64,000 nt of DNA from Naegleria gruberi. Taxonomy: Eukaryota. The position numbers were made by a program, and so were the translations under genes. Below, in pieces: positions 2,025 through 59,435 of the stretch. Location of the stretch: the NCBI GenBank assembly GCA_000004985.1, contig GG738885.1; one strand, given 5' to 3'. Positions within the stretch are counted from its first letter, which is position 1. Every line of letters starts with the position of its first letter. The notes below the pieces were generated by a model. That model did not search any database. It was not told where the DNA came from and was given only the letters and a program-made list of their open reading frames with translations.

Positions 2025-4274
2025 ATGTTTTTGCAAAAGTCAAAAGTGAGCAGAGTTTTGGTTCACACCTCTGCTCGCCATCAGCAGCAATCTCATCATC
2101 AATTTAAGAAGAACAATGTTGTTGTTCATCATGGCACCAACGGAATGACTTCATCATTGACTAGACACAGATCCATCGCTTTGAATAATAGCAATTTTAT
2201 AGAAGCTTCATTATCCAGCTTGGTATCATCCAATAATAATAATAATAATCATAATGGATTGAATAGTCATGTAATTATTAGTAATGCTAAACAGAAGAGT
2301 TATTCTACTACCTCTTCTTCATCTTCTTCATCTTCTTCATCTCTTTCAGTTTCTAAACCATCAAATCAACAAACAATTTTAACCTTTATTGAAACAACAA
2401 AAAAGAAGAGAATTGAGACTGAAAAGAAGGAAATGGTTAAAGATATTCTTGATACCTTCTCCGATGACCCATTCACATCTAAATTCTTGACTAACATCAT
2501 TTCAAGCAAGGTTTTTGCATATTCTACACCAAAGAAATTGAAGGATACCTTTCAAGTTTTATTATTGAGAAAATCTAGAAAGACTATTCTGTCTAGTAAA
2601 TTTGATGAATTACCGGAAGAGAGACAATATTCATTAATGTGTAAAACATTGAGCGAAGACCTTCTTCCCTTCATTCAAGAATACATTAGTGAAGGAAAAT
2701 TCGATTTCTTGAAAAAGGATACTATTTTACAATCACTCTTCCTTCCAACAAGATCTATGAGATATATTTCTAGAGATGTTGCTTTATATCTTTTGGAGAA
2801 TAATACTTATATGAAATTGAATATCAAGAGAAGTATTGTTGAAGATGCAGTGCTTTCATATTATAGAGTTATGGAAGATTTATCAGGATTTACCAAGTTT
2901 GTTACTGAGAATCAACTCGACATGTCTGTTCTTCGTTATGGAATGTTCATAGAATTGATTAATAAGAATGGAGATTCTAATTCATTAACAACTGTTTTCG
3001 AGGAATTGTTGAATTATCTTTTACAGAGAGAAGAGTTAAATCTCACTCCTAAAGAATGGGATATTATTTCCAAGTCTTTTAGTTTAGCTATTAATCATTA
3101 CCAATTATTAGGAGAACTTGACAAGGCAGAGGAATTATTCAGTCTTTCCATTCACTCTCAAAATCTGTACTCTAAACCATCCAATTTTAAAACTGAAAAG
3201 GACATTTCAATTTTGAAATCACATATTTATAGCTCTTTGACTACATTCAATTCAATAATCAAGACCTACCTTAATGCTGGAATGGTAGAACAATCTTACA
3301 AGTTAGTGGAAGTTGCATTTGCAGAGTTAGCATATTTGGCAAACAAGAAAATTATTAATGCTCCTCTTGTAAAACAATCCAAGCAATTCATTTCTATCAT
3401 CAATCCATTGTTGAATGTACTTATTTCAAGGGGTAATTTGCAAGAAGCTGATAAGGTAGTAACATCGATATTTGACAAGTCATCATCTTTGCAAAAATCA
3501 TATAACCGTACTATGAACCAATTGTTTACTACTTCTGACTATTCAATTAATGCTGACCGTGTTACTTTCTTGATACTTATCAGAAGACATAGTATTGATG
3601 GAAATATTACAGAAATTGTAAATATTATGAGAAATATGCACGTTTTTGGCGTAAGTCCATCCAATGAAATTCTTCAGTCAGCCATTGTTAGTTTGGCCTT
3701 CAATGGTCAATCTGCTGGTGTTGAAGCACTATTACAATTCTTAGTTTCTGAATTTGATTACAAACTCACAGATTATGCTGCTTATGCCATAATGAAGTGT
3801 TATGTGCAAACAGGAAACATTCAAAAGGCTGAAAGAGTTTTAGAAGAATATTCTGGAATTGGCAAACCAATTATTGGCATGTATAATGTTGTCATTGGTT
3901 CTAATCTGACTCAACTCCATAACTATGAAGCAGCTTGTCAATATTTCTTCAATGCTGTACAGCAATCCGGATTGGCTTTCGCTGTTAACCAACATACCTT
4001 TACCCCATTCATTAACTTTTTCACAATTGCTGCCGATGAAACAGCTTTAAAGTGTATCAACACTCTTCAGACGCTTGCTAATCAAAATCCAAAGGAAACA
4101 GCATTCTTAAAATACTCTCAAATACTGAAAACTATTTATGAAGATATTTCAAAGGGAAGAAAGGGTGAAAATAATGGAGCATCAGTGGAATCTGTTGTTG
4201 AACAAGCAGTTCAAAAGACAAAGTCATTACTCTCTCAAGCTAAGAGTGAAATACATAAGGAAATGCGTAAATAA
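2025..4274 (+). CDS. Hypothetical protein, 749 aa. N-terminal presequence-like region and poly-N/poly-S tracts; C-terminal half looks like a PPR/TPR-type helical repeat.
   Basis: Long uninterrupted ORF starting at ATG 2025. N-terminus MFLQKSKVSRVLVHTSARH is basic/hydroxylated, like a mitochondrial presequence. Repeated about 35-aa helical hairpin motifs (e.g. SFNSIIKTYLNAGMVEQSYKLVEVAF, YNVVIGSNLTQLHNYEAACQYFFNAVQQSGL). Product assignment is tentative. Confidence 0.55.
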   Translation: MFLQKSKVSRVLVHTSARHQQQSHHQFKKNNVVVHHGTNGMTSSLTRHRSIALNNSNFIEASLSSLVSSNNNNNNHNGLNSHVIISNAKQKSYSTTSSSSSSSSSSLSVSKPSNQQTILTFIETTKKKRIETEKKEMVKDILDTFSDDPFTSKFLTNIISSKVFAYSTPKKLKDTFQVLLLRKSRKTILSSKFDELPEERQYSLMCKTLSEDLLPFIQEYISEGKFDFLKKDTILQSLFLPTRSMRYISRDVALYLLENNTYMKLNIKRSIVEDAVLSYYRVMEDLSGFTKFVTENQLDMSVLRYGMFIELINKNGDSNSLTTVFEELLNYLLQREELNLTPKEWDIISKSFSLAINHYQLLGELDKAEELFSLSIHSQNLYSKPSNFKTEKDISILKSHIYSSLTTFNSIIKTYLNAGMVEQSYKLVEVAFAELAYLANKKIINAPLVKQSKQFISIINPLLNVLISRGNLQEADKVVTSIFDKSSSLQKSYNRTMNQLFTTSDYSINADRVTFLILIRRHSIDGNITEIVNIMRNMHVFGVSPSNEILQSAIVSLAFNGQSAGVEALLQFLVSEFDYKLTDYAAYAIMKCYVQTGNIQKAERVLEEYSGIGKPIIGMYNVVIGSNLTQLHNYEAACQYFFNAVQQSGLAFAVNQHTFTPFINFFTIAADETALKCINTLQTLANQNPKETAFLKYSQILKTIYEDISKGRKGENNGASVESVVEQAVQKTKSLLSQAKSEIHKEMRK

Positions 4275-31423: not shown

Positions 31424-32521
31424 ATGGAAGAAGAACTGCCAGCCATTGTACTCGATATAGGATCAGCATTTACAAAAGCTGGATTTGCAGGTGATGATTA
31501 TCCACGTGGATCCGAACCAATGCCCACACTCGTTGGTCTTCCAAAGTCTAGTGTTGGAGTGCAGGAGACTGCTGGAGATGTGGCCTTCCTCAGACGTTAT
31601 CAATTTAGAATAGTTCATCCAGTGAAAAGAGGTTTAATTCAGGATTGGGATTGTTTGGAGAAATTATTATATTATTCATATTGGACATGGTTGAGATCAC
31701 ATCCGAAAACTTATGGTGTGTTGTGGAGTGAATCAAGTTTGAAATTGGATAGAAAAAAGATTACTCAATTGATGTTTGAAAAGTTTGAAGTACCTGCTTT
31801 TCATTTGGTCAATCAAGGAGTTTTGGCATTGATGGCAACTGGACGAACGAATGGAATAGTTTTGGAGGTAGGAGATGGATGTTCACAATCTATTCCAGTT
31901 GTGGAAGGGTATGCATTGAGACATGCAATAATGGAAGTGGATTTTGCTGGATACGATTTGACAAGGTATTGGATGGAGAGTGTTGGAGCTAGTTCTGAAT
32001 TTGCAAGTGACACAATTTTAAACCATGATGTTATGCGAATAATGAAAGAAAAATTGTGTCATGTTGCTTTGGATTATGAATCGAGTAAGAATGATACTTC
32101 AGTAGTGGAATATGAATTACCTGATGGAAGTATAATTAAAGCAGGTAATGAGCGATTCAAATGTGCAGAATTACTCTTTCAACCACACCTTATTGGATTG
32201 GATATTTTGGGAATTCACGAGTCTGTCATTACTTCAATCAGAAAGTGTGATATTGATTGTAGGAAACTCATGTTTAATAATATTATTCTATCAGGTGGGT
32301 CAACATTGATGAAGGGTATTGTTGAGAGATTGAGAAATGAATTGGTTGAATCGACTTCTTCATGTACTAAAATTGCTGTAAAAGATGTTCCAGAAAGAAG
32401 ATTTCTACCATGGATCGGAGGTTCTATTGCTGCTTCCTTATCCACTTTTCAATCACTGGCTATCTCAGCAACAGAATTTGCCGAAGCTGGAAGTAACATC
32501 TTGTACAGAAAGTACCAGTGA
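31424..32521 (+). CDS. Actin-related protein (divergent Arp; subfamily not assigned).
   Basis: Actin-fold motifs: IVLDIGSAFTKAGFAGDDYP (phosphate-1), VPAFHLVNQGVLALMATGRTNGIVLEVGDGCSQ, YELPDGSIIKAGNERFKCAELLFQP, ILSGGSTLMKGIVERL...WIGGSIAASLSTFQ. Single 365-codon exon. Confidence 0.8.
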   Translation: MEEELPAIVLDIGSAFTKAGFAGDDYPRGSEPMPTLVGLPKSSVGVQETAGDVAFLRRYQFRIVHPVKRGLIQDWDCLEKLLYYSYWTWLRSHPKTYGVLWSESSLKLDRKKITQLMFEKFEVPAFHLVNQGVLALMATGRTNGIVLEVGDGCSQSIPVVEGYALRHAIMEVDFAGYDLTRYWMESVGASSEFASDTILNHDVMRIMKEKLCHVALDYESSKNDTSVVEYELPDGSIIKAGNERFKCAELLFQPHLIGLDILGIHESVITSIRKCDIDCRKLMFNNIILSGGSTLMKGIVERLRNELVESTSSCTKIAVKDVPERRFLPWIGGSIAASLSTFQSLAISATEFAEAGSNILYRKYQ

Positions 32522-32802: not shown

Positions 32803-35800
32803 TTATTGCAAAATCTTTATTTGAAGTGTTTGAGCCAATAAAAGTCTCAATTCAGAAAGTGTTAACAGCTTTGTTTGAGTGTCGTTGCTTATATTTTCTT
32901 TGAACTCAAATTCCATATATTCAACATGTTCCATTACTGAAAGTAATTCAGTGTACTGAAGTAATGTCAAATTGATGGACATTAATAATTCCATTTTAAG
33001 TTCAGAGTTGGGAATTTCGGAGAGAGTGGAAGGTAACAAGTGGGCATTAGCTTCACAATTATCGAGTATCTTAAAGAAGGAAGAGATCCATTGAATTTCT
33101 GGCATTTCAATCATGAAAGAATATTCCTCAAGACCATAATGCACATATCTCAAGTTTTGAGTTGTGCTTATCTTGTCTCTTATCACATCTTCCAGTTCAT
33201 CCATATTACCTGATTTGTAAACATGATAAATACCAGCAGCAAAATTATGTTCAGCAATATATGCCAGTCCTAATTTCAAGTGAAGTTTACCGCAAACAGT
33301 CTTAGCAAATGGTGTATCCTTAACATATCTGTAAATCTTATCAATTTGATTTTCGTTTGTAATATGAATATTCAAAATAATATTGGTAATAATATCTTGA
33401 ATTTGCTTTTGAGATTCGTCATCATAATAAGAAAGATAATCAACAGCAATCTTCCAAAGATCGTTTTCCAAGTTTTCGCATGGATTGGTATCAATCAATT
33501 TTTGATAATAAGGAAGTAACTCTTCAATAACATATAATTTGATTGCTTCGTTTTTGAAAATATGCAAACTTTCAAGATAACTATTGGCATTGGTTGCAGT
33601 ATAAATCCTTTGATAAAGGAAATTGATATGGTAGAAGAAAGTAGCAATATGTGACATGAACCAGTGGTATTTGAAAAATTCTTGGTTTTGATTTGATAAA
33701 GCCAAACCTTGATCAATATTCTTCAACGTGTCCTCCAAATTATCACCAAAAACAATCAAACCAATAGCTTCAAGAACAAGACTTGGTTCATCCTCTTTAA
33801 GATTTTTGGCATGAACAGCCAAATCAATAATTTCATTGATATCAGCAAAATGTTGATACTTATATAATGCCAAACCAATAAGAATTTCAATCCAGTTTTC
33901 AGAGACATCTGTGATGATATTTTCATTTCCAATAAGTATTTCAATGCAAGTGTTAAGGAATGCAAATTCATCAGATCCATCATCTTGACCTTGTAATTCC
34001 TTTTTAAGCTTAAGGACTAACCTCTTCCAAACTTGCATTTCATCAAGATATTCTTCGAATGTAGCTGATATCGAAGAGTAATTAACTACATTAGGACGTT
34101 TAGATAAAATTTCCAAGAATGCTGTATATAAATCATGTAATTTCCTTGGCATTGTCTTTAACTCTGCACTCTTTTGTTGCTTGATAGCTTCAACAACTTT
34201 AGATGAATGCTCACCAATAACCAAAAGTCTGTAAAGATTTTGATCTAACTCACTTTCCCTACTGAAACAGACAGAACTTCTAATGTACCATTTTACAAGT
34301 TTTTGAAGTAAACCTCCTCTGCAGAATCTGTTAAAATAAAATATATCAACAGCAGAGAATATATCAAAATAGGTACCAAATTGTTTAAGTTCCCCAATAC
34401 CTTGGTAGATGATTGATTTGAATTGGGAAATAGTTTTTTCCAAAATATTCTTATCTAGTTTGTCCTCTAGGAAAGCATCTTGCATATAAAGGAACATTTC
34501 TGCAGATTCGTGCAAAATCTTCCACCATAAATCTTCTTTAGATAAAGAGGAATTAGAGTTTGGAGTAAATTCCAAATATTCAGGATTATAAGAGTCGTTA
34601 TCTTCCTCCATAGCTGTATTATTAGAAAGGATTGATCTTTGATAAACTGATTGTGTTGGTGGTGATTTAGCGTTCAAAGGACTGTTCGAAATACTGAATA
34701 TAGTGTCGTTATGATCTGTTGTCTTTTCCAAATATTTGGCAAATGGTGATACTCCATTAGTGCTTGATTCAAAAGAGTCATTATTGAAAGGAACAGAGCC
34801 CTGGATTGGTGCTGTTCTGTTCAAGTCTACAACTTGGCTTGGTTTTGATTGAAATGCTGGCCTATTCATCGCAAACTTGTCTTCTTCTAAAACCAATGGA
34901 TCGTTATCGAGTAAATCTTCTTCATCAACCTTCTTTTTAAAATCAAACTTTGAGCCAGCTTTAACATATGACACTGTGTTTGGTGGTTTTTTGCTTCTTA
35001 CTGCCTTAGGTGTGGAGGTGATTGATGTTATTGGTTGTTCATCATCTTCCATATCTTCATAGGTTTTGGAAATTTGAGGATTCATTGGGAAGTTAATGAC
35101 TGGAGCAGTGGTTTCAGATTTGTTATTGAATCCAAATGAAGGGAAGGATTGTGGTTCGCTTGAAGTATTTCCAAACGAAAAGGAGGTTGGTGCTTTGGTT
35201 GGCACTGGTTCTGAACTACTCTCATCGCTACTGCTACTATCATCATCGTTGTTTGTTGCAAGCTTTCCAAATGAAAATGGAACAGCTCCTTTTCCCAATG
35301 ATGTATTACCTGGATTAAAGCCAGTACTAGAACTGGATGAAGAGCCACTTCCAGGATTAAATCCAAAAGATAAAACTTGACCAGTTCCAGGATTAAATCC
35401 ACCAACTGATTCTTTTGGCTTTTCAGGTTCTGAAGGTTTTGCAAAATTGAATGAACCAGTTGTAGGCTCTGTAGTTGTACTTGATCCAAAATTGAATGAA
35501 AATGGTTTTGTTGTAGATTCTTCTTGTGTAAATCCAAATGAAAGAGTGTTTCCGGTATTGGATTTAGCAGCCTCCTTTTCTGTAGTTGAACCCAAGGAAA
35601 ATGGCTTTGGTACTGATGCTGGCTCTGAGCTACTCTCATCGCTACTGCTACTATCATCATCGTTGTTTGTTGCAAGTTTTCCAAATGAAAATGGAACAGC
35701 ACCTTTTCCTAATGAAGTATTACCTGGATTAAAGCCAGTATTAGAACTGGAAGATCCGCTTCCAGGGTTGAACCCAAAAGATAAAACTTGACTAGCTCCA

Positions 35801-36381
35801 GGATTAAATCCTCCAATTGATTCCTTTGGTTTTTCTTGTTCCTTTGTTTGTCCAAATGAAAATGGTTTTGGTTCAGTATTGCCAGTAGTTGTTGTTCCAA
35901 AAGTAAATCCTTTTGATGAATCAAATGTATCTTTTGGTTGTTCTGTTGATGTATTAGTAGTTTCACTAGTTTTAGTACTCGCCAATGCTCCGAATGAAAA
36001 AGGTACAGAACCAGTTCCAAGTGATGTTTGTCCTGGGTTAAAACCCGAAGATGAAGAACTTCCACTACCAGGATTAAATGCAAAACCTCCACTGCTACTA
36101 GTTCCACCAAAATTGGGTTTTGTTGTGACTGGTGTAGTGAAAGAAAAGCCTCCTTTTGTTTCCTTTACACTAGAGGTTCCTTCCAAAGCAGATGATCCTT
36201 CACTTGAATCCTTTTCCACTAAATTATCCTCGCTCTTTTCAGGTTCATCGGTAGGCTTATTAAAGACAAAATTAACTGGTTTTGAAGGCATATCCACAAG
36301 GATTGGTGGTGTTGTTGTTGTAGGTGTATCATTTTGTGTTTCCTTTGTTGCACGAACTTGAAAAGTCGAAAGAAAACCCAT
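32803..36381 (-). CDS. FG-repeat nucleoporin-like protein: N-terminal FG/FSFG/GFNPG repeats, C-terminal about 570-aa alpha-helical domain.
   Basis: Dozens of FG motifs in a Ser/Thr/Gly-rich N-terminal 600 aa (PFSFG, SFGF, GFNPG, FNFG). Helical C-terminal half. Start taken at first ATG (36381) inside the ORF, which opens at 36417. Confidence 0.75.
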   Translation of the reverse strand: MGFLSTFQVRATKETQNDTPTTTTPPILVDMPSKPVNFVFNKPTDEPEKSEDNLVEKDSSEGSSALEGTSSVKETKGGFSFTTPVTTKPNFGGTSSSGGFAFNPGSGSSSSSGFNPGQTSLGTGSVPFSFGALASTKTSETTNTSTEQPKDTFDSSKGFTFGTTTTGNTEPKPFSFGQTKEQEKPKESIGGFNPGASQVLSFGFNPGSGSSSSNTGFNPGNTSLGKGAVPFSFGKLATNNDDDSSSSDESSSEPASVPKPFSLGSTTEKEAAKSNTGNTLSFGFTQEESTTKPFSFNFGSSTTTEPTTGSFNFAKPSEPEKPKESVGGFNPGTGQVLSFGFNPGSGSSSSSSTGFNPGNTSLGKGAVPFSFGKLATNNDDDSSSSDESSSEPVPTKAPTSFSFGNTSSEPQSFPSFGFNNKSETTAPVINFPMNPQISKTYEDMEDDEQPITSITSTPKAVRSKKPPNTVSYVKAGSKFDFKKKVDEEDLLDNDPLVLEEDKFAMNRPAFQSKPSQVVDLNRTAPIQGSVPFNNDSFESSTNGVSPFAKYLEKTTDHNDTIFSISNSPLNAKSPPTQSVYQRSILSNNTAMEEDNDSYNPEYLEFTPNSNSSLSKEDLWWKILHESAEMFLYMQDAFLEDKLDKNILEKTISQFKSIIYQGIGELKQFGTYFDIFSAVDIFYFNRFCRGGLLQKLVKWYIRSSVCFSRESELDQNLYRLLVIGEHSSKVVEAIKQQKSAELKTMPRKLHDLYTAFLEILSKRPNVVNYSSISATFEEYLDEMQVWKRLVLKLKKELQGQDDGSDEFAFLNTCIEILIGNENIITDVSENWIEILIGLALYKYQHFADINEIIDLAVHAKNLKEDEPSLVLEAIGLIVFGDNLEDTLKNIDQGLALSNQNQEFFKYHWFMSHIATFFYHINFLYQRIYTATNANSYLESLHIFKNEAIKLYVIEELLPYYQKLIDTNPCENLENDLWKIAVDYLSYYDDESQKQIQDIITNIILNIHITNENQIDKIYRYVKDTPFAKTVCGKLHLKLGLAYIAEHNFAAGIYHVYKSGNMDELEDVIRDKISTTQNLRYVHYGLEEYSFMIEMPEIQWISSFFKILDNCEANAHLLPSTLSEIPNSELKMELLMSINLTLLQYTELLSVMEHVEYMEFEFKENISNDTQTKLLTLSELRLLLAQTLQIKILQ
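35205..35835 (-). repeat. Intragenic tandem duplication: two about 215-nt units (about 35205..35420 and 35620..35835, about 90 % identical; period 414 nt) inside the FG-nucleoporin gene.
   Basis: Nucleotide blocks ...gctactgctactatcatcatcgttgtttgttgcaag...ccaaaagataaaacttgac... occur twice. At protein level KESxGGFNPGxxQVLSFGFNPGSGSSSS..TGFNPGNTSLGKGAVPFSFGKLATNNDDDSSSSDESSSEP occurs twice. Antisense ORFs 35096..35380 and 35447..35791 mirror the duplication. Confidence 0.85.
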
Positions 36382-36671
36382 AATGTCATTGGCTCCCTCC
36401 TTTCTGTTATTGTTCAAAATTGTTCAATAATAAATTATCATCATGATTGTGATGGAAATTGTTGTGGTGAATAAATTTTATTATTAAAATCACCTACCCG
36501 AAAAGTCCTGACATTTTTTTCTTTAAATTCTTGAAGTTTATTCAAATATTAATAACAATACAACACTATGTAATATGTTTCATCACAACACTGTAATAAT
36601 TAAATCCTTGTTTTCCACATGGAAAAACAACTTTTCTTATTAATTGAAGAAGCAAATAATTGAAAGAAAAA

Positions 36672-41685: not shown

Positions 41686-41803
41686 GGCTACGGCCATATC
41701 ACGATGAATGCACCTCATCCCGTCCGATTTGAGAAGTTAAGCATCGTCGAGCCACATCAGTACTGAGGTTGGAGACAACTTGGGAACCTGTGGTGCTGTA
41801 GTC
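41686..41803 (+). rRNA. 5S: 5S ribosomal RNA gene, copy 1 (118 nt).
   Basis: GGCTACGGCCATATCACGATGAATGCACCTCATCCCGTCCGATTTGAGAAGTTAAGCATCGTCGAGCCACATCAGTACTGAGGTTGGAGACAACTTGGGAACCTGTGGTGCTGTAGTC. Canonical 5S blocks CCATA(U/C)CAC, CATCCCGTCCGAT, GAAGTTAAGC, AGTACT, GGGA(A)CC. The 5'/3' ends pair to form helix I. Followed by TTTTT, a Pol III terminator. Confidence 0.9.
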
Positions 41804-41838
41804 TTTTTCAAATTAACACTTTTAATGTTTGTTCCAGA

Positions 41839-43685: not shown

Positions 43686-44172
43686 CCATTTCTATTAAAT
43701 GAAAATGCAATATCAATTACTGGTTGGCTAGTTAGCACTTGTTATCTACTTGCTCGTCTAAATATCAACCTAACAAAAAAAATCTCAGTTAGATTTGATA
43801 CGTTTCACTTTGTGGATAATGTAATTATTATTATCAACAACAGTAAACATATTTCTATTTAAATATTTTATGGAAATATTCATCAATTTTAGATAAATTT
43901 ATCAAAATTATTAAATTTTTTAATTCTTTGCTCATTTCCAATAAAAATTGATTTCAATAACATTATTTTCAAATAGTTGTAATCTTTCAAATCCAATGTT
44001 GTTATTATCAAAATAAGTATTTACGATAAAATTATATTTTCAGAAATATTTTCAGATAACGAAATAAATAATTAGTATTATAATTTAAATTATTACTAAA
44101 AACATCTTTAAAATCATAAATAGTTTCAATATATTCAATCAGTCTATTGGGATTATTCAAAAAAGAAGAAAA

Positions 44173-44290
44173 GACTACAGCACCACAGGTTCCCAAGTTG
44201 TCTCCAACCTCAGTACTGATGTGGCTCGACGATGCTTAACTTCTCAAATCGGACGGGATGAGGTGCATTCATCGTGATATGGCCGTAGTC
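44173..44290 (-). rRNA. 5S: 5S ribosomal RNA gene, copy 2 (minus strand).
   Basis: The reverse complement is identical to copy 1 except G2->A. 5' flank (44291..44306) is the box AATTAAGGAGATAAAT. 3' flank is TTTTCTTCTTTT. Confidence 0.9.
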
Positions 44291-44354: not shown

Positions 44355-45605
44355 CTAATATTGTAGTTTTTCAAAAACTATCTTCATGTTTTGTGGTAAA
44401 TCTAATTCAGGTTTGTTGAACCCCTTCGAATAAATTAGTTTTTCTAATTTTGGTAATTTCAATAAAGATTCCAATCCAAACTGGTCTATTTCAGCATATT
44501 TGATGGAGAGTTCCTTAATGGACTCGAATTTAGAGAAATGTTCTGCTAATTCATTGGTAATACTAAACATTTTAAAGGTTTCCAATTGTTTAAACGTTTC
44601 AGGGTTCAACCTAGCGAGATTTTCCCCATATCCACCATCCTCAAATGAAAGCTCTTTCAATTGACTATTTTTGGAAATTGAATCCATCAAATAATCAGAA
44701 AAATCAGCATATGACAAGCTTAATCTCAATGTTTTGACATTCTCGCAAAATGGTACTCCAAATCCTTCAATTCGTTCTCCATGCAAAGTAATCTTCTCTA
44801 AATGTTTCAACTTATTTATGGCTGCAAATGATTCAACAACTTGCTCACTTGTTGGATCTTCTGTAATTTCACCTCTTATTAGATAAATAACGGAATATAT
44901 CTCTTTAAGATTCTTCCAATTTTCAAATATTTCTGGCGCTGTAAAAATTGATGTTAATGACTTGTTTTTGAAATATTCTAATTGAGGAGTGTTTTTTGAT
45001 ATTTCAATAAAATGTTCAATTAATGAGCTTGAATCAATACAATCCAATGTCAATTTCTTCAAATTTCTACACTGTGCAATTAAAGAAGCCAAGCTGGAGA
45101 GACCATAATCACTATTAGAATAATAATCACATCTAATATAAATATTTTCCAAACTTGGAAATTTTTTCAATGCCCATTGAGAAACATATTCTGGAAGATA
45201 GTCACTAGATAACTGAATTGATTTAACCAAATCTGTATCCACATTTTTGAATGTTCTTTCCAAATTTTCAATTACTTTTTCTTTAGTATTATGTTTCTGG
45301 AGGTTTGGTTTCAAAATATTTGATTTTTCACCTTCTATCAAGTCAATTCTCTTTCCATCATTGGCACAAAGTTCAATATTTATCACTTGTCTTTCAAATG
45401 ATTCTTCCACCCTCGTTTGGTCCCAACACAAATTCTTGAATAAGAAGCAAATATTTCCTGTTGGAAATCTTCCAAAATAATACTTGAAAAATGTTGAAGA
45501 TTTTCTACTGCACAACTTGGCTTCAAATTCTAAATAGGACAAAATTTCCATTATGATTTCTGATGGAAGCTGGTGATAGAGTTCACCACCATCATGTGTT
45601 GACAT
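44355..45605 (-). CDS. F-box / leucine-rich-repeat protein.
   Basis: N-terminal F-box LPSEIIMEILSYLEFEAKLCSRKSSTFFK, followed by repeated LxxLxxLxL units (LKKLTLDCIDSSSLIEHF, LEKITLHGERIEGF, LKELSFEDGGYGENL...). Confidence 0.7.
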   Translation of the reverse strand: MSTHDGGELYHQLPSEIIMEILSYLEFEAKLCSRKSSTFFKYYFGRFPTGNICFLFKNLCWDQTRVEESFERQVINIELCANDGKRIDLIEGEKSNILKPNLQKHNTKEKVIENLERTFKNVDTDLVKSIQLSSDYLPEYVSQWALKKFPSLENIYIRCDYYSNSDYGLSSLASLIAQCRNLKKLTLDCIDSSSLIEHFIEISKNTPQLEYFKNKSLTSIFTAPEIFENWKNLKEIYSVIYLIRGEITEDPTSEQVVESFAAINKLKHLEKITLHGERIEGFGVPFCENVKTLRLSLSYADFSDYLMDSISKNSQLKELSFEDGGYGENLARLNPETFKQLETFKMFSITNELAEHFSKFESIKELSIKYAEIDQFGLESLLKLPKLEKLIYSKGFNKPELDLPQNMKIVFEKLQY

Positions 45606-47195: not shown

Positions 47196-47313
47196 GACTA
47201 CGGTCATATCACGATTCATGCACCTCATCCCGTCCGATTTGAGAAGTTAAGCATCGTAGAGCCACATCAGTACTGAGGTTGGAGACAACTTGGGACCCTG
47301 TGGTGCTGTAGTC
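47196..47313 (+). rRNA. 5S: 5S ribosomal RNA gene, copy 3 (sequence variant).
   Basis: GACTACGGTCATATCACGATTCATGCACC...GTAGAGCC...GGGACCCTG... carries 5 substitutions relative to copy 2 (C9T, GA21-22TC, C63A, A101C). Same upstream box AATTAAGGAGATAAAT. TTTTT terminator. Confidence 0.85.
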
Positions 47314-48097
47314 TTTTTATTTTCAACCTTTTATCATGAGAGGAAATGATTGTTGGTTCGAATCAAGTGTTCCTTTATAGAAGTCCTTTCAAAATGAAAT
47401 ATTCTTTTGCAAACCATGTTAAGAGTTTTACAACTTTTTCAAAATTCCAAAATGTTTCTATTATTTAACAGAGCGAGAAATCATACCAGATGAATACTCA
47501 CAGGACAAAATTGAGAAGGAACAACCACTTTGATTATTGACCAAATTCTAGCTACTCATCCTCTGAGTGAAAGGAGGAGAGTTTCCAGATTCACATTTCA
47601 GTCTTCATGATCTCTGAAATGTCCTTCTAGGTAAGTATGAAGAAAGCAAAGAGTGCAAATTCAAACAAATCTTAAAAACCTTTCCAGATGTATTTATTTT
47701 TGAAAATTGAATTATTGTCATTGTTTGTTTTTTTATGATTTGAATTCTTTGAAATTGTTGAACATGAAGTAAACACCGAGTTGACATAATTATATTGAAA
47801 TTTATGTAGGATGTGAATTGAATCAGAAATTCAGACAGTTCAGAAGAGAATAACGAAAATTCAACTGTGCATAATTGAATATTTTGGTTTTATTTACAAT
47901 GGTTGCCTAGGCTTACAAAATTTTATGGAGTTCACCACATTTTGAATTGTTTGTTTCTCATTTCAACAGTATTCTGTGATTGAGATTTGGAAGTTTTACT
48001 TGTTTCACTTCCAATAGAAGTAATGTTTGAAATAGATGAAGTTTCAATTTCGATTTGATTAAGAAAATATCAAACCAAAATTTGGATCAAGCAACTC

Positions 48098-48190: not shown

Positions 48191-48953
48191 TCACTGTTCA
48201 TACAGTCAAAGACTGTAGCGGGATAGTCGCCATATTCCTGGCAGGCTTCCCGTCCAAAATTACAAATGATAAACAAACAATAATTCTGAAAATTGCATCA
48301 GAACAACAGTGTGATATCATCACAGGAGGTGTACACCATGTACTACTTCATCTGGGAGTTGAGTATAACCACATCTGCTCTCGTAAAATGTTATTCCTTT
48401 GAGAACAGGAGTCAAGGCTTCCTTATTATCACCTCTCTTCAAGATGACCATATTCAATGGTCCCCCTCATGGCCGAATCATAAGCTAGGATATCTATATC
48501 TTCTTCAGTCATTTTTTTGGTTTCTTATTATTACCTGATTTCTGCATCTTGTGTTCTTGAAGTTTCTTCACTTCTGAGGTTTAAAAGCCCAATAAATATG
48601 ATATTTAATATAATAATTAAATAAATAAGAAAATAATTTTTATTATTCAATTCATTAAGGCAATAACTGGCATATCTTTTCAGAATAGTCCTAAACATTG
48701 ACTTTTCATCATTTTCACTCGTCGTTGAGAAATGAATCAGCTGTACTCGCAACAGTTTACTCAAGATTCAAATTGAATTAAACATGAACCGAGTTTGTGT
48801 CCAGAAACAAAAATCGGTTCATTGACAGAATTTCTTTGCATAAGAACTACTTTCTAAAAATATACATCTCAAACAAGTATAAAAAACAAGGAAGTGCATG
48901 GTGTTTTGAATTCAAAAAAACAACAAAACAAGAAAAACATAACAACAAACATA

Positions 48954-49412
48954 ATGCAATTATTTGTCAAGACACTCACTGGAAGAACCATCACTTTGGA
49001 GGTTGAATCTAATGATTCGATTGAAAATGTGAAAAGAAAAGTGCAAGATAAGGAAGGAATTTCACCAGATCAACAAAGACTCATCTTTGCAGGAAAACAA
49101 TTGGAAGATGGCAGAACTATTAATGATTACAACATTCAAAAAGATTCAACTCTTCATTTGGTGTTGAGATTAAGAGGAGGAATGCAACTTTTTGTAAAAA
49201 CCTTAACTGGAAAGACAATTACAATTGAAATGGAATCGATTGATACTGTTGAGAATATGAAACAAAAGATATTTGATAAGGAAGGTATTCCATCAGATCA
49301 ACAACGATTGATTTATGCCGGTAAGCAATTGGAAGATGGAAGAACTATAAGTGATTACAATCTTCAAAAGGATTCAACTGTGCATTTAGTATTGAGATTG
49401 AGAGGAGGTTAA
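48954..49412 (+). CDS. Di-ubiquitin (two head-to-tail 76-aa ubiquitin units, each ending RGG). Unusually divergent from canonical ubiquitin.
   Basis: [76 protein letters not shown] plus [76 protein letters not shown]. Exactly 152 codons then TAA. The ORF-track start at 48894 is GTG; ATG at 48954. Confidence 0.85.
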
Positions 49413-49594
49413 GTTAGCAAAATATCATAGATTCTCTCAATTATTGCCAATAAATTACACTGTAACTTTTTTTGGCTGTGTGTTCGATTCCATTCAACCT
49501 TTTAGCTTTAGAATAAGTAGATTTGCTAGTCTTCATTTTCAGGTGGAACCAATTGAAAGTTCAAACTGTTAACTGGAAGAAACAATTTTACAAA

Positions 49595-50992
49595 AAAATG
49601 CCTCTAACAGATTTAAACTTTTTTAAACGCAGAAAGATGAATGCTAGTAAAGAAACTAGTAGCATTCAACTCTCCGAAGGCTTTAAACAATTATTTTCTA
49701 TTAAAGATATATTTCAATCAATTGTAATGGGAGGATTTATTTCTCTCCCTGATGCTATTCGAATGTCGCTAGTTTGTAAAGATTGGTTTCAAATGATCGA
49801 AAGTACGGAATCGTATAACATGTTTTTGAAATGTTTTATTCAATCATCCACTAAACATCTCTCCAAATTGACTATCCAAAATTCTACCAATGGTACTGAC
49901 ATTAGTTTAACAAAAGATCATGCCAAAATAATATATGAAATGATCAGAGGATGGAGTTGTGTTAGATCATGCCAAAGTAATCGATCATTCTATTTCACAG
50001 AGAATAATAATTATCCCTATATTGGTGATCAACATGTGGTGTCAGCTCAGCAATTTTTCACTCCTCATCTAATTAACACTAATTTAACAATTGTACCAGA
50101 TAACATCCCATCCAGAAAAAAAGAAATCTTTGGATTATTTTACAATATCGGAAATGAGAACGAGGAGTTTAATTTTGAGAAAATCTATTGGGCACAGAAA
50201 GAGATAGTGTATAATTATGAAGAGTATTTTTTCCTACCCATGATTAAATTAACTAGAAAGAAAGGAAGCAATATTAATTGGAAAGATATTTATTTTGGCT
50301 CCTGTGCTGAATGGAGGGATGAGCATAAAGAGCTCATCAGAAATATAACCAAGGATGGCAAAACATTTGTTGTGGATTCGAATTTGTCGTATGTTTTTGG
50401 ATCATGTTTCGATGGTGAGGTGGAGCATAAAATTCTGAAAAACATTAGAAAGTGCTCAAGATTTACTCTTCGTCACCTACCATACGAATTTTTGCATGGA
50501 AATTTCAACGATGACGATGATGATACCAAGCCAAATAGTCATAAAGGAGGATTGAATGACTTCTTCAATCTTACTTTGAAGAAGATGCTCTACCGATACT
50601 TGAAAATGAATTTGCTAAATATTCCAATATGTAGAGAGTATATTTTTACCTTTTTGATTTATCTTTCTAAGAAACTTCACTATGCTCACAGATTTTCGTT
50701 TTATCACGATTCTCAATTGGAGGGAAGTTCACTTATTCAATTAGGTGCAGATGAACAGGTAATGGATTGGCTGAATGAATATAAGAAATGTGAATGTAAA
50801 AACTATGATGAGATCTTTCACACCATTGTGAGAGTTGAGTTGGATTATTATGGATCTATTCAGGGAGAGGAGGTAAAATCTCATTTATATGTTCTCTCCT
50901 TAAAGAAAGATGATGAAAATGAAATATGCAATTTTGAGTTTGTGGACTATCATTATTATAATTACAAAATTGTTGGAGAAATTCTGAGTTAA
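49595..50992 (+). CDS. Hypothetical protein with an N-terminal F-box-like motif (466 aa).
   Basis: ISLPDAIRMSLVCKDWFQMIE resembles an F-box. Long ORF. An acceptor (ttcattttcag at 49541) upstream suggests a possible 5' exon or UTR intron. Confidence 0.55.
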   Translation, partial: KMPLTDLNFFKRRKMNASKETSSIQLSEGFKQLFSIKDIFQSIVMGGFISLPDAIRMSLVCKDWFQMIESTESYNMFLKCFIQSSTKHLSKLTIQNSTNGTDISLTKDHAKIIYEMIRGWSCVRSCQSNRSFYFTENNNYPYIGDQHVVSAQQFFTPHLINTNLTIVPDNIPSRKKEIFGLFYNIGNENEEFNFEKIYWAQKEIVYNYEEYFFLPMIKLTRKKGSNINWKDIYFGSCAEWRDEHKELIRNITKDGKTFVVDSNLSYVFGSCFDGEVEHKILKNIRKCSRFTLRHLPYEFLHGNFNDDDDDTKPNSHKGGLNDFFNLTLKKMLYRYLKMNLLNIPICREYIFTFLIYLSKKLHYAHRFSFYHDSQLEGSSLIQLGADEQVMDWLNEYKKCECKNYDEIFHTIVRVELDYYGSIQGEEVKSHLYVLSLKKDDENEICNFEFVDYHYYNYKIVGEILS

Positions 50993-58465: not shown

Positions 58466-59435
58466 GTTATTGAAATATTTTCCTAACTAAATTAATTAAC
58501 AACTTTTCAGTTTCAATTTACCAGGATTTGGTATGTACGACATTCTTGCAGGGAGTAGAGCAGCAAACATTAGGAATTCACATTTGATATCTCGTCTTCC
58601 TCTTGTTGATGCTTGTGGAAGAATTGAAGATTATTTAAATTTCAAGACTTTCCTATTTCAATTATATGAAAATGACTTGAACGTCAAATTTCAAACACAT
58701 CCACTTGTGTTAGCTGTCCCATTTTCTTGGACAGAGAAAGATATTTTGATGGTTAAAAGAATAATTAATGAGCTTGGAATTCAGCTATCATGTCTAATAG
58801 ACTCTTCCAAATTGATTGCTTACAATTATTCGAAACCTAATTGTATTTTATTGAATATTTCAGCAAGTGGTACTGCTTGTGTACCAATCAGAAACTATGA
58901 GCCACTGAATGAAATGAAAATATTTGAGCCATTCAATGTTTCTTCCATTCCTCATTCTATGAATTTTTGGGATAATATTTATGGAGCTCTCAGAGTAGTA
59001 CTGATGGTGCCTCCAACCCCACTGGAACAATACGAAACAATGAAGGAAAAGTGGGAAGGTATCACTTATGGAACTAATTATGGAGTGGAGGTGAATTATA
59101 ATCAACATGTATTTGAGGCAGAAACTTTACTTACTATTGGAAACCAATTGTTTGTTAATGCATTCAAAGTATTGAGAAAAACAATTAAATCTCTACAGAT
59201 TAACAGTGATAGTATTGAGGATGTTTTAATTTGTGGCGGGTTTTCCTCAATACACGGCATGAAAGATAGATTAACACGTGAAATTAGAGAAATCTATCCT
59301 AATCTCAATTTGGAATTCAAATCTGATGAAATGGAAGTTATTGGCGGTGCTAAAATAATTTGTAACTTAGCAAAATTTAAACAACAACTTGAAGCGTTCC
59401 AATTAGACAACAATAAATTGCTTAATTTAAGTTGA
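58340..59435 (+). CDS. Divergent actin-related protein. Exons about 58340..58461 and 58511..59435 (49-nt intron). Alternatively this is the C-terminal domain of the preceding ORF.
   Basis: Spliced: MDLFWSPVLLDPGTSSYRYSLQNSETADKDIMVCGKPHHP-H-FNLPGFGMYDILAGSRAANIRNSHLISRLPLVDACGRIEDYLNFKTFLFQLYENDLNVKFQTHPLVLAVP... is collinear with actin (LVVDNGSG..., YVGDEAQ, LKYPIEHGII.NWDDMEKIWHH.F, HPVLLTEAP). The C-terminal half has DVLICGGFSSIHGMKDRLTREI and IGGAKII. Confidence 0.6.

Follow-up and report, generated by a model that had tools for sequence, protein, structure and literature searches.

Ubiquitin is the textbook near-invariant protein, with ~96–100% identity across eukaryotes, and polyubiquitin precursors usually carry one or more capping residues after the last repeat. 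NEDD8 carries Ala72 where ubiquitin has Arg72, ISG15 and FAT10 have a non-cleavable linker and dedicated E1 and E2 enzymes, and many giant viruses encode ubiquitin or polyubiquitin. The Arabidopsis 'polyubiquitin-like' genes UBQ8 and UBQ9, with their non-identical repeats, belong to the same class of variant paralogues as the gene described here. The human UBBP4 variant UbKEKS has only four differences from ubiquitin, and both its conjugation and its distinct targets have been shown experimentally (PMC7066184; PMC10537958). The ubiquitin moieties of UbS27a and UbL40 in Giardia and Plasmodium are divergent and are thought to serve mainly as chaperones for the ribosomal protein (PMC10457151).

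The gene analysed here comes from Naegleria gruberi. The window, i.e., the whole 64,000-nt stretch of DNA that was analysed (contig GG738885.1), is 32% GC and carries densely packed eukaryotic genes, some with introns of ~40–55 nt. A first-pass annotation had placed a di-ubiquitin gene with exceptionally divergent repeats at 48954–49412, and such a gene is present there as a single intact ORF with two Pfam ubiquitin domains. The gene and its putative flanking signals are laid out as follows:

48954–49412, + strand: complete di-ubiquitin coding sequence (ORF and translation), 459 nt, 152 codons plus TAA at 49410–49412
48954–49181, + strand: repeat 1, a ubiquitin variant identical to human ubiquitin at 65/76 positions, with K11R, ending in LRLRGG and followed by the Met of repeat 2
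49182–49409, + strand: repeat 2, a ubiquitin variant identical to human ubiquitin at 61/76 positions, with LRLRGG abutting the stop codon and no C-terminal cap
48878–48883, + strand: possible TATA box (TATAAA), 71–76 nt 5′ of the ATG, a candidate by motif match only
49449–49454, + strand: possible polyadenylation signal (AATAAA), 37 nt 3′ of the stop codon, likewise a candidate by motif match only

The translation consists of two 76-residue ubiquitin repeats joined head-to-tail without a spacer, and the junction LRLRGG/MQLFVK at 49179–49184 (the slash marks the repeat boundary) is of the GG/M type found in polyubiquitin precursors. An in-frame stop codon lies upstream at 48855, and the ATG at 48954 is the first in-frame ATG after it. 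The protein matches the Pfam ubiquitin profile PF00240 over two full-length domains with E = 3.5e-59. It is identical to XP_002674256.1 (EFC41512.1, UniProt D2VP04), 'polyubiquitin [Naegleria gruberi]', which lies on a 362,555-bp contig of strain NEG-M with the adjacent accessions EFC41509 to EFC41511 as its neighbours. The sequence is already public and annotated, though undiscussed in the literature we found: a literature search on Naegleria ubiquitin genes returned no paper dealing with this gene or its divergence. A tblastn search of the 64-kb window revealed no other ubiquitin-coding sequence.

Compared with human ubiquitin, repeat 1 is changed at 11 of 76 positions (I3L, K11R, P19S, S20N, T22S, A28R, I30V, P37S, L56I, S57N, E64D) and repeat 2 at 15 of 76 (I3L, L15I, V17M, P19S, S20I, I23V, V26M, A28Q, Q31F, P38S, F45Y, L56I, I61L, E64D, L67V), corresponding to identities of 85.5% and 80.3%. 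These are exactly the counts, K11R included, that the first-pass annotation had given. The two repeats had also been said to differ from each other at many sites, and we count 16 amino acid differences between them (79% identity) with a DNA identity of 75.9%. Both repeats keep the L8/I44/H68/V70 patch, I36/L71/L73, R42, R54, R72, K48, K63 and LRLRGG, which bears out the earlier statement that L8/I44/V70, K48, K63 and the C-terminal LRLRGG are retained. All seven acceptor lysines (K6, K11, K27, K29, K33, K48, K63) are present in repeat 2, while repeat 1 has R11. The substitutions either exchange one core residue for a similar one (I3L, L15I, V17M, I23V, V26M, I30V, L56I, I61L, L67V) or sit around the helix and its flanking loops; the segment 13–39 carries 6 of the 11 repeat-1 changes and 9 of the 15 repeat-2 changes.

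Neither the near-invariance nor the identical repeats of canonical polyubiquitin are thus found in this gene. The divergence that had been claimed is real, but 'exceptionally' holds only in a relative sense: the best 120 database matches include 16 poly-ubiquitin-like proteins in which every repeat is at most 68/76 identical to human ubiquitin, a heterogeneous and divergent set, so divergent polyubiquitin-like genes as such are not rare. In many tri-ubiquitins from environmental sequences the repeats are divergent and unequal, K11R being a frequent change, and in some of them one or two extra residues are inserted between repeats (GG-G-MQ, GG-DG-MQ). Polyubiquitin-like genes of this heterogeneous kind seem to be widespread among uncultured protists and giant viruses.

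The fold appears to be that of ubiquitin throughout. An AlphaFold2 model of the di-ubiquitin has a pLDDT of 89.9 and consists of two beta-grasp domains, with the beta-beta-alpha-beta-beta pattern occurring twice, and its best structural matches in Foldseek are linear di-ubiquitins. Both repeats belong to the ubiquitin family by the PF00240 profile and by the predicted beta-grasp fold, and both end in R72-L73-R74-G75-G76, the C-terminus of ubiquitin proper. A NEDD8/RUB identity is excluded by R72 and by an identity of 54–55% to NEDD8 versus 80–86% to ubiquitin.

Proteins with at least three repeats dominate homologue searches with the di-ubiquitin, since their scores add up to more than a two-repeat orthologue could reach; among the matches only a tri-ubiquitin from N. 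lovaniensis is informative. This protein, C9374_007316 (232 aa), consists of three non-identical divergent repeats followed by YYLL, and its internal junctions are LRLRGG/M and LRLRGG/R. It has the derived states L3, R11, N20, S22 and D64 in common with repeat 1, and F31, S38 and Y45 in common with repeat 2. Judged from these residues, a common origin of the N. gruberi and N. lovaniensis variant genes is likely, though convergence may account for some of the shared states. For each N. gruberi repeat, identity to human ubiquitin (65 and 61/76) slightly exceeds that to any family member (56–62/76). Comparing the window with the N. lovaniensis locus, we found no synteny beyond the ubiquitin gene, so that the two genes are not established as orthologues. 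The N. lovaniensis gene lies 3.5 kb from the end of its contig and adjoins a DDE_Tnp_4 (Harbinger/PIF-type) transposase gene, the two genes occupying 696–2233 and 3473–4171 of PYSW02000029.1; there are hints that the variant family may spread by transposon-associated duplication.

Across the five family repeats, two from N. gruberi and three from N. lovaniensis, 45 of the 76 positions are unchanged, including Q2, F4, K6, L8, T12, T14, K27, K29, K33, E34, I36, R42, I44, K48, R54, D58, Y59, H68, V70 and the whole L71–G76 tail. Residues 41–55 (except 45) and 66–76 (except 67) are invariant in all five repeats, and the three N. lovaniensis repeats also keep the same patch and arginine residues (L8/I44/H68/V70, I36/L71/L73, R42, R54) as the N. 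gruberi pair. K11, on the other hand, is replaced in four of the five. Mutational scans of yeast ubiquitin found R42, I44, K48 and G75–76 to be sensitive, with L8, I36, V70, L71 and L73 also sensitive under stress, and K11R to be well tolerated with high fitness (PMC4862753). On this alignment of five repeats, the invariant family positions cover those that are mutation-sensitive in the yeast scans.

The reading that we prefer, with a probability of roughly 0.65, is that the gene is an intact, selectively maintained polyubiquitin paralogue, part of a Naegleria-lineage variant family that has escaped both homogenisation and the near-absolute purifying selection on ubiquitin. It would encode a head-to-tail precursor of two ubiquitin variants, the first characterized by R11 and the second by F31/S38/Y45. 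Ordinary deubiquitinases would cut this precursor at the internal LRLRGG/M junction, after which the ubiquitin E1 (R72 type) would activate the variant monomers and the normal E2 and E3 enzymes would attach them to substrates. The pool would thereby gain ubiquitins without K11 and with an altered helix face, probably at modest expression. We infer cleavage into two variants and their entry into the normal E1/E2/E3 pathway from the intact gene, the fold, the determinants that are kept, the purifying selection, and the presence of canonical ubiquitin elsewhere. The perfect GG/M or GG/R found at each of the three internal junctions in the family supports processing into monomers.

The main competing possibility, which we consider unlikely, is that the gene is a redundant or decaying polyubiquitin duplicate that has escaped homogenisation and drifts under relaxed constraint, producing little, nothing or generic ubiquitin, and having no variant-specific role. 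Such a duplicate would fit the observations that the substitutions fall mainly at positions tolerant in the yeast scans or are conservative core swaps, that each repeat is about equally close to canonical ubiquitin and to its relatives, and that the codon usage is ordinary. Specifically, the gene has a GC content of 0.33 and a GC3 of 0.26, like its ordinary neighbours. The window's only cytosolic ribosomal-protein gene, a single comparator, has a GC3 of 0.43, and the value of 0.26, well below this, argues against high expression of the di-ubiquitin gene and hints at modest expression. The same reading could draw on the proteomic record: XP_002674256/D2VP04 is not among the entries listed from the N. 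gruberi proteome table (PMC9035749), which is not evidence of absence, and it is absent from the supplements of PMC8134430.

What counts against decay is the pattern of substitution itself. Between repeats 1 and 2 we estimate dN = 0.141 and dS = 1.68, which is saturated, giving dN/dS = 0.084, and all ten pairwise comparisons among family repeats give dN/dS values of 0.05–0.17. By these estimates the two repeats are old duplicates that have not been homogenised and that are under purifying selection; this selection is far weaker than that on canonical ubiquitin. The ORF has stayed intact despite the saturated dS, and no known essential residue falls outside the 45 positions that stay constant across five independent repeats, whereas a neutral pseudogene of that age would show stop codons, frameshifts or changes at R42, I44, K48 or G75–76.

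The tryptic Gly-Gly remnants of the di-ubiquitin variants are the same as those of canonical ubiquitin. Because both end in LRGG, the tryptic remnant cannot discriminate variant from canonical ubiquitin, and standard tryptic GG-remnant proteomics cannot reveal use of the D2VP04 variants; Lys-C remnants, as predicted from the sequences, would discriminate both repeats from canonical ubiquitin. Within 390 nt upstream of the ATG there are no HSE-like promoter motifs, the only two GAAnnTTC-type matches being at 48554 and 48559, ~400 nt upstream of the gene. A 7-bp inverted repeat, GAACCGA ... TCGGTTC (48786–48792 and 48814–48820, 21-nt spacer), lies ~135–170 nt upstream of the ATG.

It is also conceivable, though quite improbable in our view, that the precursor is left uncut and that linear di-ubiquitin is activated and attached as a two-domain unit of 17 kDa, in the manner of ISG15 or FAT10. 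The TAA directly after the last GG, in place of the cap that is usual in polyubiquitin, would suit such a tandem modifier, as would a fold-level resemblance to ISG15-type tandem UBLs (Foldseek ranks 34–50, 27–32% identity). However, the internal junction is a perfect LRLRGG/M deubiquitinase site, an intact linker of a kind that ISG15 and FAT10 lack, and the N. lovaniensis junctions are likewise LRLRGG/M and LRLRGG/R. The N. lovaniensis relative, moreover, does end in a C-terminal cap, YYLL.

The first-pass annotation had left two options: either the organism's ubiquitin is fast-evolving, or the gene is a paralogue distinct from a canonical polyubiquitin encoded elsewhere. Under the first option Naegleria ubiquitin would have diverged as a whole and the di-ubiquitin gene would simply be the organism's polyubiquitin, as its 'polyubiquitin' annotation could suggest, and a similarly divergent gene does exist in N. 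lovaniensis, the sister species of N. fowleri. We nevertheless reject it as very improbable. For the N. fowleri polyubiquitin NF0029300 (PDB 5VIX) an identity of 96% to human tri-ubiquitin 5H07_A is reported (PMC7990177, Table 3), so that the genus does have a canonical, near-human polyubiquitin, and the wwPDB validation report maps the 160-residue 5VIX chain to UniProt D2V6G7, with eight tag residues as the only discrepancies (PMC7990177 supplement). The entries D2VP04, D2VNZ9, D2VP01, D2VP03, D2VNZ2 and D2VWS0 are all from N. gruberi (_NAEGR), and from this accession block we infer that D2V6G7 is an N. gruberi protein too. N. gruberi itself would then encode a canonical polyubiquitin that is identical to that of N. 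fowleri over 152 residues. Antibodies against human K48 and K63 chains also stain N. gruberi (PMC11772885).

The di-ubiquitin protein, in contrast, is only 85% identical to 5VIX, against 82–83% to human linear di-ubiquitin (Foldseek), the comparison with 5VIX resting on the published 96% figure and this Foldseek identity. Counted over the full di-ubiquitin, the excess over human comes to only ~2 residues, which leaves room for few of the derived states shared with N. lovaniensis in the canonical ubiquitin of Naegleria. Together with the canonical gene, the low identity to 5VIX supports the second option, a paralogue, and speaks against drift of the whole lineage. The rates point the same way: over 152 residues the canonical genes of N. 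gruberi and N. fowleri show 0 changes (with D2V6G7 assigned by accession block), whereas the best-matching N. gruberi and N. lovaniensis repeats of the variant family, for which orthology is not established, differ at 14 or more of 76 positions. As far as these sequences can be compared, there is a large rate contrast between the canonical polyubiquitin gene and the variant family. Another N. gruberi 'polyubiquitin', XP_002669208.1, which is not in the window, is listed in the whole-cell proteome at 191 kDa with 11 peptides and 11% coverage (PMC9035749); this size is odd for a polyubiquitin, and the entry could reflect a flawed gene model or a fusion protein with a ubiquitin domain.

Horizontal acquisition, e.g., from a giant virus, is scarcely credible. 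AT-rich contigs of metagenomic or viral origin often carry divergent ubiquitins, and a Hokovirus polyubiquitin is among the database matches, but the best viral or metagenomic sequences reach only 66–67/76 to the repeats while being themselves 70–73/76 canonical, and scans of metagenome and viral contigs (30 and 2 loci) yielded none that surpasses canonical ubiquitin in closeness to either repeat. The GC and GC3 of the gene match those of its neighbours, the flanks are ordinary cellular genes, and the closest relative by shared derived residues is another Naegleria gene, even though raw identity slightly favours human ubiquitin.

The genes of the window include Rad50, a Nup85-like gene, APC3, actin-like, PPR, P450, RGS and F-box/LRR genes, mitochondrial L20 and KAS, and RPL14e. 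The Rad50 ORF is 63% identical to Rad50 of N. fowleri and 56% identical to that of Willaertia magna. Several other features of the window were located:

31424–32521, + strand: divergent full-length actin-like ORF (Pfam Actin, E = 5.7e-91), clearly not conventional actin
32803–36417, – strand: Nup85-like ORF, 1204 aa, with the Nup85 Pfam match at residues 627–1073
41686–41804, + strand: 5S rRNA gene
44172–44290, – strand: 5S rRNA gene
47196–47314, + strand: 5S rRNA gene (Rfam scores of the three, 95–106 bits)
44355–45605, – strand: F-box/LRR ORF with weak Pfam F-box and LRR matches, flanking the di-ubiquitin gene
49599–50992, + strand: ORF with the F-box-like motif LPDAIRMSLVCKDWFQMI and no significant Pfam match, flanking the di-ubiquitin gene
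58533–59435, + strand: divergent actin-family ORF, a partial fold match with E = 2.5e-10

The three 5S rRNA genes are 95–99% identical to one another and are dispersed singly between protein-coding genes within 5.6 kb, the last of them lying 1.6 kb upstream of the di-ubiquitin gene. The Nup85-like ORF has an N-terminal extension of ~600 residues outside its Pfam match, and a word-based search in a collection that includes other Naegleria genomes returned no homologue of this ORF at E ≤ 1e-5. A link between the flanking F-box-like ORFs and the ubiquitin gene is possible, but in an F-box-rich genome their proximity is probably a coincidence.

A bolder reading, which we consider unlikely, is that Naegleria maintains a small set of variant ubiquitins that serve as separate signals. 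Most of them would lack K11, with changes on the face of the helix that points away from the hydrophobic patch. They would be written by the normal E1, E2 and E3 enzymes, would not be able to build K11 chains, and would be recognised or removed in a different way. Copies of ubiquitin that escape the usual constraint while remaining under purifying selection reveal what the molecule cannot do without. Conjugation of the variants, if it occurs, would expand the 'ubiquitin code' of an early-branching eukaryote and make a natural K11-less ubiquitin available for study. For annotators, the label 'polyubiquitin' on D2VP04 should not be taken to mean the canonical N. gruberi gene. The significance is modest unless variant-specific conjugation is demonstrated.

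Relative to canonical polyubiquitin (yeast UBI4, human UBB and UBC, D2V6G7, and NF0029300/5VIX), the N. gruberi gene has the same spacer-less 76-residue repeats, the same LRLRGG ends and the same predicted fold, and it shares the hydrophobic patch, the E1 determinants (R42, R54, R72, G75–G76), K48 and K63. It differs in having only two repeats, which are 79% identical to each other and 80–86% identical to the canonical sequence, in having no sign of concerted evolution (dS is saturated), no K11 in repeat 1 and no cap, and in its ordinary codon usage. The divergent UbS27a and UbL40 moieties of protists resemble it in having changes at 15% or more of their sites without loss of the predicted fold or of the 8/44/70 patch, but they are ribosomal-protein fusions whereas this is a pure ubiquitin-repeat gene. 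ISG15 and FAT10 also have two beta-grasp domains per chain and a free C-terminal GG, but their identity to the di-ubiquitin is ~30% (fold search), and the di-ubiquitin's linker is a canonical processing site with a ubiquitin-type R72. In concept, the protist fusions and the variant paralogues of human and Arabidopsis come closest to it. Human UBBP4/UbKEKS has in common with it the polyubiquitin architecture, the substituted repeats, the coexisting canonical genes and the kept GG tail, through which conjugation is possible in principle (PMC7066184; PMC10537958), and differs in that the Naegleria gene carries 11–15 differences per repeat, is known from its sequence alone, and arose independently in Heterolobosea. 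By analogy, the variant ubiquitins of Naegleria could possibly be a protist counterpart of UbKEKS, used in stress or in the transitions between amoeba, flagellate and cyst.
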